The position numbers and the translations under genes were made by a program. The notes below the pieces were generated by a model. That model ran no database searches. It had not been told where the DNA came from and saw only the letters and a list, made by a program, of their open reading frames with translations. A DNA stretch of 5,558 bases from a virus (Duplodnaviria > Heunggongvirae > Uroviricota > Caudoviricetes): the IMG/VR virus record IMGVR_UViG_2671180921_000028, positions 1 through 5,558 of that record; one strand, written 5' to 3'. Each line of letters starts with the position of its first letter. Position 1 is the first letter of the stretch. Below, piece by piece: positions 964 to 5,558 of the stretch.

Positions 964-1391
964 ACAAGATTGACTATCAGGCACTGCGTGAGGCGGCAGT
1001 AGCAATTGAAACAGTAGCAATTGAAACAGTAGCAACACCTCAAAAATTGCTGGCATTTCGTATGAAAGTCACACCTCAGGTTGTGCTGGCTCTACTGGAT
1101 GAACGGGAAAGAAACCAGCAATACATCAAACGACGCGACCAGGAGAACGAGGAGATTGCGCTTACGGTTGGGAAGCTGCGTGTTGAGCTTGAGGCAGAAA
1201 AACAGCGGGCAAAGGATCTATTTATGGAAAATGCTCGGCTTAAGTCAGGTGTAGCCGGTCTGATACACCTCGGTATTCGATATGCAGATGTTGAGGTCAT
1301 GAGAATTGCTGGAGATGCCCAGCTTTCTACCCCATTCACTGACAGCATCATAAACAGCATTGCAACAGGCATTCGCATCAAAGGAGAGTGA
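960..1391 (+). CDS. Ead/Ea22-like coiled-coil protein (putative)
   Basis: 143-aa ORF with GTG start overlapping the upstream stop. N-terminal DYQALREAA motif and a central charged coiled-coil (LRVELEAEKQRAKDL) resemble the lambdoid Ea22-like family as recalled from memory. Contains the in-frame tandem repeat. Confidence 0.45.
   Translation: MNKIDYQALREAAVAIETVAIETVATPQKLLAFRMKVTPQVVLALLDERERNQQYIKRRDQENEEIALTVGKLRVELEAEKQRAKDLFMENARLKSGVAGLIHLGIRYADVEVMRIAGDAQLSTPFTDSIINSIATGIRIKGE
998..1038 (+). repeat. In-frame 15-bp tandem repeat (cagtagcaattgaaa x2 plus an 11-nt partial copy) encoding VAIET-VAIET-VAT
   Basis: Two exact 15-nt units at 998-1012 and 1013-1027, then a partial unit at 1028-1038, all inside the 960-1391 CDS. 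Confidence 0.85.
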
Positions 1392-3287: not shown

Positions 3288-3342
3288 CCTCGCACTCGCG
3301 GGGATTTCTTTTATCTGAACTCGCTACGGCGAGTTTTGTTTT
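3288..3342 (+). terminator. Tandem rho-independent terminator hairpins closing the accessory operon
   Basis: Hairpin 1: CCTCGC-actc-GCGGGG (3288-3303, one G-U pair) followed by ATTTCTTTT. Hairpin 2: AACTCGC-tacg-GCGAGTT (3318-3335) followed by TTTGTTTT. Confidence 0.6.
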
Positions 3343-3355
3343 ATGGAGATGATAA

Positions 3356-3523
3356 ATGCACTTCCGAGTCACAGGTGAATGGAATGGAGAACCATTCAAC
3401 AGAGTTATCGAAGCAGAGGACATCAACGACTGCTATGACCACTGGATGCTATGGGCGCAGATAGCACATGCAGACATAACCAATATTCGAATTGAAGAAC
3501 TGAAAGAACACCAAGCCGCCTGA
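3356..3523 (+). CDS. Unlisted small ORF (55 aa, MHFRVTGEWNGEPFNRVIEAEDINDCYDHWMLWAQIAHADITNIRIEELKEHQAA)
   Basis: ATG 3356 with GGAG (3345-3348, spacing 7), stop TGA 3521-3523. Below the track length cut-off. Sits between the terminators and torI. No family recognised. Confidence 0.4.
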   Translation: MHFRVTGEWNGEPFNRVIEAEDINDCYDHWMLWAQIAHADITNIRIEELKEHQAA

Positions 3524-3535
3524 TGGTGGTTTTTT
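3516..3535 (+). terminator. Weak putative intrinsic terminator
   Basis: CCGCC-tgat-GGTGG (5 bp stem with one G-U pair) followed by TTTTTTATT. Overlaps the stop codon of the 55-aa ORF. Confidence 0.3.
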
Positions 3536-3545
3536 ATTGCCTGAT

Positions 3546-3561
3546 TTGCAGGTTCGATTCC
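3546..3561 (+). other. tRNA-like fragment (T-stem/T-loop, TTGCAGGTTCGATTCC) just upstream of torI
   Basis: Contains the canonical T-arm motif GGTTCGATTCC. From memory it is identical to the argW segment immediately 5' of the att core. No acceptor or anticodon arms are present, so it is not a tRNA gene. Confidence 0.5.
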
Positions 3562-3580
3562 CTATTCGGAGATAGCACTC

Positions 3581-3781
3581 ATGCAACACGAACTACAGCC
3601 TGATTCACTGGTTGATTTGAAATTCATCATGGCCGATACTGGCTTCGGTAAAACCTTCATCTATGACCGGATTAAGTCCGGGGACCTGCCTAAAGCCAAA
3701 GTTATCCACGGGCGAGCAAGATGGTTATATCGTGACCATTGTGAATTCAAAAATAAGCTCTTAAGCCGCGCCAATGGGTAA
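3581..3781 (+). CDS. torI: TorI, excisionase-like recombination directionality factor and Tor response-regulator inhibitor
   Basis: 66-aa ORF recognised as E. coli TorI/AlpA-Xis-type winged-helix protein, with GGAG RBS at 3568-3571. Lies at the att-proximal end of the prophage, as in KplE1. Confidence 0.85.
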   Translation: MQHELQPDSLVDLKFIMADTGFGKTFIYDRIKSGDLPKAKVIHGRARWLYRDHCEFKNKLLSRANG

Positions 3782-3797
3782 AATAGCGGGTAAAATA
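3776..3797 (+). repeat. Direct repeat GGGTAAAATA-gc-GGGTAAAATA overlapping the torI stop codon
   Basis: Two exact 10-nt copies at 3776-3785 and 3788-3797, followed by an A/T-rich tract. Candidate protein-binding sites in the attR arm. Confidence 0.6.
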
Positions 3798-3853
3798 TTT
3801 TTCACATCTAAAAAACACCATTCCAATCAATCCCCTGCCGCTTCAAGTAGATG

Positions 3854-3869
3854 CCTGCAGGGGACACCA
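3854..3869 (+). other. attR core: 16-nt copy of the 3' end of tRNA-Arg(CCU) argW (CCTGCAGGGGACACCA)
   Basis: Matches the 3' T-stem, acceptor 3' strand, discriminator and CCA of argW as recalled. Upstream sequence diverges from the tRNA. Flanked by the inverted repeat CCCCTGC (3832-3838) / GCAGGGG (3857-3863). Confidence 0.7.
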
Positions 3870-4257
3870 GATACCCTTCAAACGAAATCTACCTTCACCC
3901 CGTAAAAGATGGGTTTGGCAGCACACTTGCCTTATATCTACTCATTTTTACTGCAACAGGTTGAAATCTCAGCACTGTCAGAAAGCGCTGATGACTAAAC
4001 AGCCCTGGGCCGGGCGATGTAACCATCACACAGAATCCTGATAGCGAAATATGGCGTGACTCGATACTTCACTCCGCAATGCATTCCTTGATGAATTCGC
4101 AGGACCGTGATACACGGGACAGGTCACTGAATGACGACAATGTCCTGGAAATCAGCGAACCGCGCATCTGAAGTACATTTGAGCGACTGTACCAGAACAT
4201 GAATGAGGCGTTTGGATTAGGCGATTATTAGCAGGGCTAAGCATTTTACTATTATTA

Positions 4258-4301
4258 TTTTCCGGTTGAGGGATATAGAGCTATCGACAACAACCGGAAA
4301 A
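4258..4301. repeat. Perfect 11-bp inverted repeat (TTTTCCGGTTG ... CAACCGGAAAA) with a 22-nt loop, just 3' of cscB
   Basis: Arms at 4258-4268 and 4291-4301. Lies 10-50 nt beyond the cscB stop on the minus strand. No clean U-run on either strand, so it is not a canonical intrinsic terminator. Confidence 0.5.
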
Positions 4302-4310
4302 AGTTTACGT

Positions 4311-5558
4311 CTATATTGCTGAAGGTACAGGCGTTTCCATAACTATTTGCTCGCGTTTTTTACTCAAGAAGAAAATGCCAAATAGCAACATCAGGCAGAC
4401 AATACCCGAAATTGCGAAGAAAACTGTCTGGTAGCCTGCGTGGTCAAAGAGTATCCCAGTCGGCGTTGAAAGCAGCACAATCCCAAGCGAACTGGCAATT
4501 TGAAAACCAATCAGAAAGATCGTCGACGACAGGCGCTTATCAAAGTTTGCCACGCTGTATTTGAAGACGGATATGACACAAAGTGGAACCTCAATGGCAT
4601 GTAACAACTTCACTAATGAAATAATCCAGGGGTTAACGAACAGCGCGCAGGAAAGGATACGCAACGCCATAATCACAACTCCGATAAGTAATGCATTTTT
4701 TGGCCCTACCCGATTCACAAAGAAAGGAATAATCGCCATGCACAGCGCTTCGAGTACCACCTGGAATGAGTTGAGATAACCATACAGGCGCGTTCCTACA
4801 TCGTGTGATTCGAATAAACCTGCATAAAAGACAGGAAAAAGTTGTTGATCAAAAATGTTATAGAAAGACCACGTCCCCACAATAAATATGACGAAAACCC
4901 AGAAGTTTCGATCCTTGAAAACTGCGATAAAATCCTCTTTTTTTACCCCTCCCGCATCTGCCGCTACGCACTGGTGATCCTTATCTTTAAAACGCATGTT
5001 GATCATCATAAATACAGCGCCAAATAGCGAGACCAACCAGAAGTTGATATGGGGACTGATACTAAAAAATATGCCGGCAAAGAACGCGCCAATAGCATAG
5101 CCAAAAGATCCCCAGGCGCGCGCTGTTCCATATTCGAAATGAAAATTTCGCGCCATTTTTTCGGTGAAGCTATCAAGCAAACCGCATCCCGCCAGATACC
5201 CCAAGCCAAAAAATAGCGCCCCCAGAATTAGACCTACAGAAAAATTGCTTTGCAGTAACGGTTCATAAACGTAAATCATAAACGGTCCGGTCAAGACCAG
5301 GATGAAACTCATACACCAGATGAGCGGTTTCTTCAGACCGAGTTTATCCTGAACGATGCCGTAGAACATCATAAATAGAATGCTGGTAAACTGGTTGACC
5401 GAATAAAGTGTACCTAATTCCGTCCCTGTCAACCCTAGATGTCCTTTCAGCCAAATAGCGTATAACGACCACCACAGCGACCAGGAAATAAAAAAGAGAA
5501 ATGAGTAACTGGATGCAAAACGATAGTACGCATTTCTGAATGGAATATTCAGTGCCAT
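4311..5558 (-). CDS. cscB: Sucrose:H+ symporter CscB (oligosaccharide:H+ symporter family of MFS)
   Basis: 415-aa ORF with N-terminus MALNIPFRNAYYRFASSYSFLFF, recognised as CscB. Clear LacY-family motifs (DKLGLKK, FEYGTARAWG, YNIFDQQ, NRVGPKNALL, FKYSVANFDKR). Start codon is the last 3 nt of the window; stop TAG at 4311-4313. Confidence 0.9.
   Translation of the reverse strand: MALNIPFRNAYYRFASSYSFLFFISWSLWWSLYAIWLKGHLGLTGTELGTLYSVNQFTSILFMMFYGIVQDKLGLKKPLIWCMSFILVLTGPFMIYVYEPLLQSNFSVGLILGALFFGLGYLAGCGLLDSFTEKMARNFHFEYGTARAWGSFGYAIGAFFAGIFFSISPHINFWLVSLFGAVFMMINMRFKDKDHQCVAADAGGVKKEDFIAVFKDRNFWVFVIFIVGTWSFYNIFDQQLFPVFYAGLFESHDVGTRLYGYLNSFQVVLEALCMAIIPFFVNRVGPKNALLIGVVIMALRILSCALFVNPWIISLVKLLHAIEVPLCVISVFKYSVANFDKRLSSTIFLIGFQIASSLGIVLLSTPTGILFDHAGYQTVFFAISGIVCLMLLFGIFFLSKKREQIVMETPVPSAI

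Follow-up and report, generated by a model that had tools for sequence, protein, structure and literature searches.

An argW-identical box conserved upstream of torI at the right end of a KplE1/HK620/Sf6-type prophage

The torI excisionase gene of this prophage is preceded by a short box identical to part of the tRNA gene argW, and this box is very probably a conserved, selected cis element of the recombination module. Its derivation from argW is likely. The best explanation overall, to which we give a probability of about 0.35 from sequence comparison, is that the box is a captured half-site, the B arm of attB, kept as a protein-recognised site with the integrase as its likeliest reader. The box is unchanged across the relatives that carry it and therefore appears to be a functional control site.

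The argW pieces and the right prophage junction

The whole stretch of 5,558 nucleotides analysed here (the window) holds the right end of a KplE1/HK620/Sf6-type prophage that has argW as its integration site. The argW gene of the prophage-free strain NWU_3 (L005:1446-1520), GTCCTCTTAGTTAAATGGATATAACGAGCCCCTCCTAAGGGCTAATTGCAGGTTCGATTCCTGCAGGGGACACCA, was used as the reference. An earlier note had assigned two 16-nt pieces flanking torI to the 3' end of this tRNA gene, and exact alignment confirmed both: the upstream piece TTGCAGGTTCGATTCC is argW 46-61 and the downstream piece CCTGCAGGGGACACCA is argW 60-75 (Table 1). The pieces share two C's and jointly restore the final 30 nt of the tRNA, so that, as had been proposed, sequences that adjoin in argW flank torI here. 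The chance expectation for an exact argW 16-mer is 1.6e-4 per window, and 4.5e-6 in the ~325 nt around torI on the same strand. Within the window no further match to either 16-mer was found at up to three mismatches, each piece thus being single-copy. ARAGORN found no tRNA gene in the window and no detectable cloverleaf, and an Rfam search over 3300-4000 gave no significant match.

The downstream piece is the attR core, as the earlier note had expected. From 3854 on, no difference separates the window from the empty site in NWU_3, the aligned flank (3870-3949) included, and about 1,500 other genomes match window 3850-4000 at 97-99%, beside an intact tRNA-Arg. The first C of the piece, at 3854, is a minor allele; GATGCCTGCAGG is present in only 2 of about 130 loci, while most relatives have GATGTCTGCAGG. 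Downstream identity thus normally extends over 15 nt, and an overlap of two bases between the pieces is peculiar to this strain. The core CTGCAGGGGACACCA at 3855-3869 is exact and common to the argW 3' end; the published KplE1 core is CTGCAGGGGACACCAT (PMC2951348). Comparison of 35 loci showed that the phage-side core half-site (C) is TTCGATGTA or TTAGGTGTC in most relatives and is itself T-loop-like.

Table 1. Features around torI and the attR junction, in window coordinates
Feature	Position	Strand	Basis
55-aa ORF, last gene of the early-left module	3356-3523	+	ORF
Intrinsic-terminator-like hairpin and T run	3513-3535	+	terminator scan: 8 pairs, then TTTATTGCCT
Upstream argW-identical 16-mer	3546-3561	+	exact match, tRNA positions 46-61
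Family-conserved box GTTCGATTCCC	3552-3562	+	leader alignments
torI Shine-Dalgarno GGAG	3567-3570	+	read from sequence
torI, excisionase (recombination directionality factor), 66 aa	3581-3781	+	ORF
Two direct GGGTAAAA repeats, putative IntS arm-type sites of the P arm	3776-3783, 3788-3795	+	read from sequence
Phage-side core half-site (C) TCAAGTAGATGCC	3843-3855	+	comparison of 35 loci
Downstream argW-identical 16-mer, attR core	3854-3869	+	exact match
Inferred 7-bp overlap region TGCAGGG	3856-3862	+	inverted repeat GGTGTC-TGCAGGG-GACACC in relatives
Right half-site GACACCA	3863-3869	+	within attR core
Chromosomal flank of argW, strains with sucrose (csc) genes	3870-4310		NWU_3 identity over 3870-3949

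The torI product is 100% identical to proteins annotated as TorI, HkaC or gp18 in RefSeq genomes, HK620 and Sf6, and the gene lies immediately upstream of the attR junction, as in KplE1/HK620/Sf6-type attR. We infer from their sequence that the two GGGTAAAA repeats after torI are IntS arm-type sites of the P arm; they fit an arm-type-site motif with TAAA as its conserved part that has been described for P' sites (PMC2951348). In relatives with a different integrase type GGGTAAAA becomes GGGCATA. On the other side, the early-left module that ends with the 55-aa ORF is common to HK022, HK140 and Stx phages and lies outside the recombination module. Similarity to HK022 and HK140 spans 3300 to ~3539-3543 and then ends. 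The terminator-like hairpin is annotated in the HK022 and HK140 records, as tL4 in those of HK022. In KplE1 both the promoter and the leader of torI have been called uncharacterised (PMC2951348).

Distribution and conservation of the box

The upstream 16-mer covers the end of the variable region, the T-stem 5' strand, the T loop and CC of the tRNA. Its T-loop box, with the core GTTCGATT(C/T)CC, lies past the end of the early-left operon and ahead of the excisionase ribosome-binding site. The torI Shine-Dalgarno (SD) begins 6 nt past the CC that ends the 16-mer and 5 nt past the 11-nt box, and the CGGAGAT block around it is conserved across the leader alignments. The whole 16-mer is found at the equivalent place in HK620, Sf6, K-12 KplE1, CUS-3-type prophages (S88) and about 160 loci with an identical TorI, which does not support the earlier suggestion that it is a relic of a previous or tandem integration in this strain. 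In the HK620 genome the box is unique, with no additional copies. The earlier note had named, as a finding that would refute its reading, a 16-mer present in the attP arm of all relatives and unrelated to tRNA; the first part holds for all close relatives, but the piece, which lies on the phage side of the junction, is clearly tRNA-related. If captured, the box would be an ancient capture, since kept by selection.

Eight enterobacterial genera have the box core ahead of a TorI-family excisionase gene. The box is present in relatives from Salmonella, Citrobacter, Enterobacter, Edwardsiella, Serratia, Pantoea and Erwinia at excisionase identities down to 30%, and the core is retained where the excisionase is only 30-50% identical. 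Across this wider family conservation is limited to the final 10-13 nt of the 16-mer; the leading TTG is confined to the E. coli lineage. Initial scans of viral and metagenome data yielded nothing beyond loci with an identical TorI and contributed little diversity. An IMG/VR search with the pattern box plus SD plus ATG gave 120 hits, 47 of them before TorI-like genes. No TorI-like gene follows the other 73; in 51 of these the match falls within a tRNA gene called by ARAGORN, and 22 were not classified singly. Leaving those 22 aside, the pattern outside real tRNA genes was confined to the leaders of TorI-like genes. The carriers, which include P22-like podoviruses and Erwinia siphoviruses, are unrelated beyond the recombination module. 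The box has been tandemly duplicated three times independently, with periods of 16, 13 and 13 nt. It is dispensable, being missing in several lineages, either through a clean ~25-nt indel or where the excisionase gene is coupled directly to an upstream gene, and point variants occur sporadically within the E. coli population.

Among 24 representative lineages, and among 59 distinct leaders, GTTCGATT is invariant (pairwise identity 1.0). In the same 24 lineages identity is 0.41 over the 12 nt upstream and 0.44 over the spacer, and 0.80, 0.84 and 0.52 at codon positions 1, 2 and 3. The box follows neither the DNA specificity of the excisionase nor the arm-site type of the integrase. An excisionase operator was rejected: the P'-arm repeats change together with the recognition helix, GTTCG going with KTFIY and TTACC with KYFYSQ, and the box remains constant; excisionases with the KYFYSQ helix have TTACC-type repeats yet keep the GTTCGATTCC box. 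An integrase arm-type site was rejected likewise, the arm motif switching from GGGTAAAA to GGGCATA with the box unchanged. The relation between box and target tRNA was followed in one profile search and six distant excisionase contexts. All TorI-family loci recovered, at identities as low as 30%, have an argW-type core (TGCAGGGGAC and close variants) as their target, so the comparison holds no contrast between target tRNAs.

A small ORF through the box, reading V-R-F-P, was also rejected. Several lineages have no start codon for it, the residues before V are not conserved, and in Edwardsiella the frame is closed just upstream by a stop codon (TGA CAG GTT). In the same frame TAA, TGA or TAG follows in many lineages, and the variants TTC/TTT, CCN and CGA/AGA are synonymous.

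Candidate readers of the box

The position of the box within argW points to an integrase half-site. GTTCGATTCC corresponds to argW 52-61, and its end coincides with the left boundary inferred for the overlap region; tRNA identity usually stops at ...GATTCC, where the inferred overlap TGCAGGG (deduced from the GGTGTC/GACACC repeat) starts. The invariant stretch of ~10 nt next to the overlap edge has the size of one core half-site. The phage C half-site and the box have TT(C/A)GAT in common, and the same C-to-A variant recurs in both. In Serratia and Pantoea the tRNA identity extends 2 nt more (CCTG), and since these two lineages run past the edge, the boundary argument is inexact.

A captured half-site could have arisen and acted as follows. 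The piece of argW just left of the integrase cut, 10-16 nt that form the B arm of attB, would long ago have been joined to the excisionase leader through an integrase-made or illegitimate joint. Selection would afterwards have held it unchanged as a linear, protein-recognised site, to be read by the core-binding/catalytic part of an IntS-type integrase. The integrase is proposed as the likeliest partner because it is the sole factor common to these phages that already has to recognise this argW sequence; taken by itself, the pairing of integrase and box is less likely than not. An integrase tethered to the arm sites after torI and also seated on the box might loop or block the ~225 bp that hold torI. 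Excisionase expression would then be damped while integrase is present, or the attP/attR complex would gain an added contact. This comes close to a possibility raised in the earlier note, an extended att arm within which the excisionase gene would be embedded. The stronger form of this proposal, in which the box is a copy of the bacterial att half and integrase bound at the 5' edge of the excisionase gene represses torI and so sets the direction of recombination, would be a speculative extension and is on balance improbable. The essential C half-site is far more variable than the box, and integrase binding alone therefore does not obviously require invariance. Tyrosine recombinases usually bind a lone half-site weakly. 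We know of no control layer described for lambda-type or KplE1-type modules in which the integrase represses the excisionase.

The box might act instead in the torI mRNA leader, a reading we consider rather unlikely. It would pair with the SD (UUCC/GGAG, GGUU/AACC) and limit translation, or form part of a C-rich leader for Rho or an RNA-binding factor, and so keep torI silent in the lysogen. Most lineages have 4-7 nt between the box and the SD that follows it, C is abundant and G scarce in the leaders, and the box is absent where the excisionase gene is translationally coupled to an upstream gene. Work attributed to Menouni and colleagues in 2013 reportedly places torI expression under Rho-dependent termination. 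Predicted SD accessibility is low in most lineages, the Citrobacter-type hairpin is strong (-11.1 kcal/mol, z = -2.9), and 82.7% of cells in the box/SD helix are paired at register 0, against 33-62% with the partner slid. The helix, however, shows no covariation, and shuffle controls reach the observed values. RNAalifold predicted 0 pairs in both the short alignment and a long one with 90 nt of coding sequence added, and the fold z is near zero in the window (-0.43) and likewise in most lineages. Box positions C12 (over 90% conserved) and G13 (invariant) would stay unpaired despite their conservation. The outer-helix partner AAACC is absent in the E. coli and Midgardsormr lineages, where the box is still kept, and pair 18-28 is unpaired in 42 of the 59 sequences. 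An SD-sequestering hairpin was accordingly rejected as a conserved structure, its register being good but covariation lacking, most z values lying near 0 and RNAalifold returning nothing. A T-arm-like hairpin was rejected as well, with only 40.8% of cells pairing across the 59 leaders and the 52-62 pair broken in 23 sequences. Its outer stem seemed compensatory in Edwardsiella, Serratia and phiEt88.

Less likely again is a host DNA- or RNA-binding factor conserved in Enterobacterales, possibly a protein that handles the tRNA T loop. An invariant, linear element that is independent of excisionase and integrase arm specificity, has been duplicated repeatedly and recurs in carriers unrelated outside the recombination module would suit such a reader. 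The T-arm stem needed by T-loop enzymes is nevertheless absent (40.8% of cells pair), and by eye the box does not fit the IHF, Fis, CRP, FNR, TorR or sigma-54 consensus. To our knowledge there is no candidate host factor for it.

It is improbable that the box is a neutral, functionless relic of an ancient abnormal excision or tandem integration. Such an origin would account for tRNA sequence ending near the crossover point, for the persistence of the module where the box is lost and for the sporadic point variants in E. coli populations. Against neutrality, 8 of 8 positions are invariant across lineages in which the neighbouring non-coding sequence is randomised and identity at third codon positions is 52%, the captured tRNA segment has decayed on its left with the 10 nt at the boundary intact, and the box was duplicated three times independently.

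A cII-activated pI promoter, with cII on TTGC repeats overlapping the 16-mer and integrase transcription starting just before torI, is very unlikely. The HK620 record has a cII site at L003:2561-2573 and a "phage integration" promoter at 2560-2598, a homologous pI is marked in the Sf6 record, and TTGCCTGATTTGC is present at window 3537-3549. Lambda/P22-type cII sites are TTGC-N6-TTGC, but the spacing here is TTGC-N5-TTGC, and a consensus scan of 3300-3950 gave no sigma-70-like promoter. The TTGC repeats are missing from Salmonella, Edwardsiella, Erwinia and most other leaders that keep the box, and a pI promoter leaves the conserved GTTCGATTCC unexplained.

That the 16-mer serves as a second crossover site (att core) in integration or excision, as suggested by the earlier note and by the CUS-3 GenBank record (which runs from the argW copy of the 16-mer to this copy, both labelled att core, the two forming direct repeats around the whole prophage minus torI), can practically be dismissed: the S88 CUS-3-type prophage goes on beyond the end of that record through torI to a normal core, GATGTCTGCAGGGGACACCA, beside dsdC; the joint of argW, 16-mer and torI occurs in 0 of 5,426 complete E. 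coli genomes; the reciprocal joint is contiguous in none, its halves in the 13 genomes that have both being two pieces with torI in between (428 bp); the box is followed by CTATTCG against TGCAGGG in the overlap, so that, the sequence to the right differing between the copies, no overlap region is shared; and such an excision would strand the excisionase gene.

Relation to known systems and significance

The window closely resembles the argW module of KplE1 (CPS-53), HK620 and Sf6 (Panis, Mejean and Ansaldi 2007; Panis et al. 2010, PMC2951348; Clark 2001; Casjens 2004), with identical TorI, the same 15-16 nt core, the same GGGTAAAA repeats after torI and the same tRNA target. The gene order excisionase - att - integrase is also alike, and because of this order the excisionase and integrase genes lie at opposite ends of the prophage. 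The published KplE1 module spans torI to intS, and a tRNA-identical box upstream of torI is unmentioned there (PMC2951348). In the lambda intasome an integrase protomer bridges arm-type and core-type sites (summarised in PMC2951348). The hetero-bivalent Int of lambda-type attP, one protomer of which contacts an arm site and a core-type half-site, would thus be a precedent for the bridging proposed here. The putative extra half-site differs in that it would be an orphan, copying B rather than C or C' and having no adjacent overlap region. Between it and the arm sites lie ~225 bp, which include a whole gene.

Short exact tRNA fragments beside an integrated element are also left by serial or tandem integration. 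Those 3'-end repeats copy the segment right of the crossover (the identity block), whereas the box is the segment left of it, which is normally not phage-borne and is acquirable only through an abnormal joint. Abnormal excision of the lambda gal/bio type is a possible route by which a phage could gain the B arm of attB. In contrast to lambda gal/bio, the box is only 10-16 nt long, has torI between it and the core, and is fixed family-wide rather than borne by a defective transducing variant. The thrS operator and other leader tRNA mimics likewise place tRNA-like sequence just upstream of a ribosome-binding site. Mimics of the thrS type fold into a tRNA arm; the torI leaders, by contrast, do not conserve a T-arm stem and give support to no fold.

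Two annotations are affected by these comparisons. The "att core" in the CUS-3 record excludes torI and the true attR and should be corrected, and the cII/pI assignment in HK620 and Sf6 is not conserved among relatives. Were the box functionless, it would still be a molecular fossil of a rare kind, in which a phage carries the left side of attB as the record of an abnormal recombination precisely at the cut. Control of the excisionase decides whether a prophage stays or exits, and this group includes Sf6, HK620, CUS-3 and Kapi1, which carry O-antigen or capsule modification genes. An 11-nt element that is better conserved than the protein it precedes, and that copies the host target site, may therefore offer a handle on the control of torI.

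Right end of the prophage and its attachment core

The window covers the right end of a P22-like lambdoid prophage inserted in argW, the tRNA-Arg target gene, of an E. coli strain with sucrose genes. Its TorI excisionase is 100% identical to the protein annotated TorI/HkaC/gp18 in RefSeq genomes, HK620 and Sf6. On the chromosomal side (3870-5558) cscB, the LacY-family permease gene, occupies the place of K-12 dsdC-dsdX, and the same flank is known without the prophage, e.g. in strain NWU_3. The Ead/Ea22-like gene contains a perfect 15-nt tandem repeat, CAGTAGCAATTGAAA (2.6 copies), whose translation repeats the peptide AIETV. Overlapping the stop codon of the 55-codon gene (TGATG), an ATG at 3523 opens a frame of 26 codons ending at TGA 3601-3603; this frame spans the terminator tail, the box, the Shine-Dalgarno sequence (SD) and 23 nt at the start of torI, and could be either a coupling ORF or coincidental.

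Features of the window (upstream and downstream pieces are the two argW fragments)
Feature	Position	Strand	Remark
Early-left-operon genes (Ead/Ea22-like, DUF551, others)		+	
15-nt tandem repeat	997-1035		
55-codon gene	3356-3523	+	downstream of early-left-operon genes
Terminator-like hairpin	3513-3535		at end of 55-codon gene
TGATG overlap and 26-codon frame	3521-3603		
Upstream piece	3546-3561		argW positions 46-61
Box	3552-3562		family-conserved
torI	3581-3781	+	followed by prophage/chromosome junction
Downstream piece	3854-3869		argW positions 60-75
LacY-family sucrose permease	4311-5558	-	

As the earlier note expected, the downstream piece is an attR core, of the KplE1 family; beginning at 3854, window and empty site have identical sequences. 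The published KplE1 core is CTGCAGGGGACACCAT (PMC2951348). Position 3854 carries an extra C, a minor allele; in most relatives the sequence is GATGTCTGCAGG. The phage side of the core reads GATGCCTGCAGG in the window strain versus GATGTCTGCAGG in nearly all relatives, a variant that adds one base of argW identity. An inverted repeat, GGTGTC-TGCAGGG-GACACC, frames the core in relatives, and from it we infer that TGCAGGG is the putative 7-bp overlap region and that the top strand is cut directly 3' of ...GATTCC in the tRNA. By its testable defining features (torI directly before the junction, a core shared with the argW 3' end, an unoccupied-site sequence to the right), this locus counts as an ordinary member of the KplE1/HK620/Sf6 recombination module.

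A conserved tRNA-identical box ahead of torI

Both 16-mers lie where the earlier note placed them, each being unique in the window, which contains no other near match, and the argW sequence it relied on agrees with that of a prophage-free strain, used here as reference. Both match argW exactly; they adjoin in the tRNA, overlapping by 2 nt. By chance, 1.6e-4 exact matches to any argW 16-mer would be expected in the window, and ARAGORN found no tRNA gene in it. HK022, HK140 and Stx phages resemble the window across the 55-codon gene and terminator, up to ~3539-3543; resemblance to K-12 KplE1 begins at ~3531. The torI module therefore starts just ahead of the upstream piece.

The upstream piece is not peculiar to this strain. 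The identical 16-mer stands at equal distance from torI in HK620, Sf6, K-12, strain BS15R-A, the CUS-3-type prophage of S88 and nearly all of ~160 loci, viral and metagenomic, whose TorI is identical. The CUS-3 record (CP000711.1) is delimited by this 16-mer, TTGCAGGTTCGATTCC, labelled attL/attR core (compared loci, L-numbered here, L001:3247-3262 and L002:1-16), with the phage starting at the copy inside argW. This annotation appears to be a mis-delimitation, because in S88 (NC_011742.1, L392:860-1300) the CUS-3-type prophage runs on into torI and the true core beside dsdC; the CUS-3 GenBank record probably lacks the excisionase gene and attR.

Species genomes, IMG/VR and public assemblies supplied the TorI-family loci compared. 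In 177 of 223 loci, and in 78 distinct sequence contexts, the excisionase gene is preceded, usually 4-7 nt before its SD, by a box with the core GTTCGATT(C/T)CC; the box occurs in Escherichia, Salmonella, Citrobacter, Enterobacter, Edwardsiella, Serratia, Pantoea and Erwinia, and is kept even with excisionases only 30-40% identical to TorI. Mean pairwise identity over 24 representative lineages is 1.0 for GTTCGATT and 0.79 for the next three bases, against 0.41 for the 12 nt upstream, 0.44 for the spacer to the SD and 0.80, 0.84 and 0.52 for excisionase codon positions 1, 2 and 3. The conserved part is thus only the 10-11 nt beside the tRNA/non-tRNA boundary. To its left the T-stem 5' strand has drifted (CAGG, CAAG, CCTG, TCAG, GCG), so the 16-nt identity of E. 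coli is a family-wide 13-mer plus three lineage-specific bases. In IMG/VR, box-SD-ATG outside genuine tRNA genes was found before TorI-like genes (47 of 120 matches; ARAGORN placed a tRNA gene over 51 of the other 73, and the remaining 22 were not individually classified).

The box was tandemly duplicated at least three times independently (Erwinia Midgardsormr38 group, L299, L514). Some lineages lost it by a clean ~25-nt indel, terminator-GCCTGG|AGAT...; HK140 has the same joint ahead of an unrelated gene.

Directly ahead of the box, many relatives have about 17 initial codons of a different excisionase-like gene (..SLTLDEAC.FLKIS), with truncation points that differ (K-12 L007:2420-2500, L006:3590-3680, L011:1701-1760); ypdJ of K-12 seems to be such a truncated gene. 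The window has the HK022-type 55-codon gene and terminator in its place. The pattern suggests that the torI module repeatedly displaced an older xis. The attP form (torI-core-P' arm) occurs on three RefSeq replicons in E. coli assemblies, 30-39 kb in size (NZ_CP081786.1, NZ_CP081694.1, NZ_CP081778.1); they probably represent phage genomes, excised or circular, that were assembled as plasmids. Some attR sites adjoin the left arm of another, different integrase module, forming tandem elements at argW (L369 ~1400-1450, L036 ~1790-1850, L242/L378 downstream of the core); between its own arm-type repeats this arm has a motif, GGTTCGAT(T/A), that resembles the box.

Candidate readers of the box

The recombination module is the sole part common to box-carrying phages. 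In the attP right arms of L003, L008, L011, L012, L257, L263, L264 and L271, the recognition helix G-K-T-F-I-Y pairs with GTTCG-type and T-x-K-Y-F-Y-S-Q with TTACC-type direct repeats of the P' arm. Given this clean covariation, the repeats are the excisionase sites. GKTFIY-type proteins go with (A/G)GTTCG and KYFYSQ-type with (C/G)(A/G)TTACC; both classes have three repeats at ~10-bp spacing, abutting the -35 of the integrase promoter. Both keep the same box, which excludes the excisionase as reader. The integrase N-terminal (arm) domain is also out, since arm repeats shift from GGGTAAAA to GGGCATA and the box is unchanged. Two sequence-specific partners are therefore left, the integrase core-binding/catalytic part or a host factor. 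A small ORF through the box was rejected.

The best explanation, at a probability of about 0.3, is that the integrase reads the box. All these integrases use the same core and must therefore recognize GTTCGATTCC as the B half-site of attB, which is the box. The box has the size of one half-site, its end coincides with the inferred cut in most lineages, and it has TT(C/A)GAT in common with the phage C half-site, a recurrent C-to-A variant included. In this proposal every step past conservation and tRNA identity is inferred. The box would be a captured B arm kept as an orphan half-site, within what would amount to an extended P arm enclosing torI, and might serve integrase-dependent damping of torI or add an intasome contact. 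Against this, the box varies far less than the essential C site, binding to lone half-sites is usually weak, some lineages dispense with the box and the identity boundary is off by 2 nt in two lineages.

An RNA or leader mechanism acting through the box is possible though doubtful. A hairpin of the box with the SD/spacer is paired in 82.7% of cells; however, it lacks covariation, leaves two near-invariant bases unpaired and has one pair mostly mismatched. A T-arm-like hairpin is paired in only 40.8%, RNAalifold predicted no structure, and fold z-scores are ~0 for the window and most lineages. That a host factor reads the box is unlikely. A neutral relic is improbable, since it would not show conservation confined to the tRNA boundary beside drifted flanks. 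The spot is annotated in the HK620 record as a "phage integration" promoter and cII binding site, and in the Sf6 record as pI and part of a "boundary sequence"; a cII/pI promoter is highly improbable, as the annotation is based on TTGC repeats that have N5 spacing and are restricted to the E. coli lineage, and the box region has no promoter consensus match. The alternative crossover site proposed in the earlier note is barely conceivable: the overlap sequence is not shared, and neither the argW-16-mer-torI joint (0 of 5,426) nor a contiguous reciprocal joint was found among the complete E. coli genomes searched (n=5,426).

Bearing on excision control

The torI promoter has been termed uncharacterised (PMC2951348), and a conserved tRNA-identical box upstream of an excisionase gene was not found in the accessible literature. 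Integrated elements are commonly accompanied by tRNA fragments, but these copy the segment right of the crossover; the box, unusually, is a conserved copy of the left segment carried in the phage. The helix/repeat covariation predicts the specificity of two TorI subfamilies. The box is easy to test and is relevant to excision control in a widespread prophage family.
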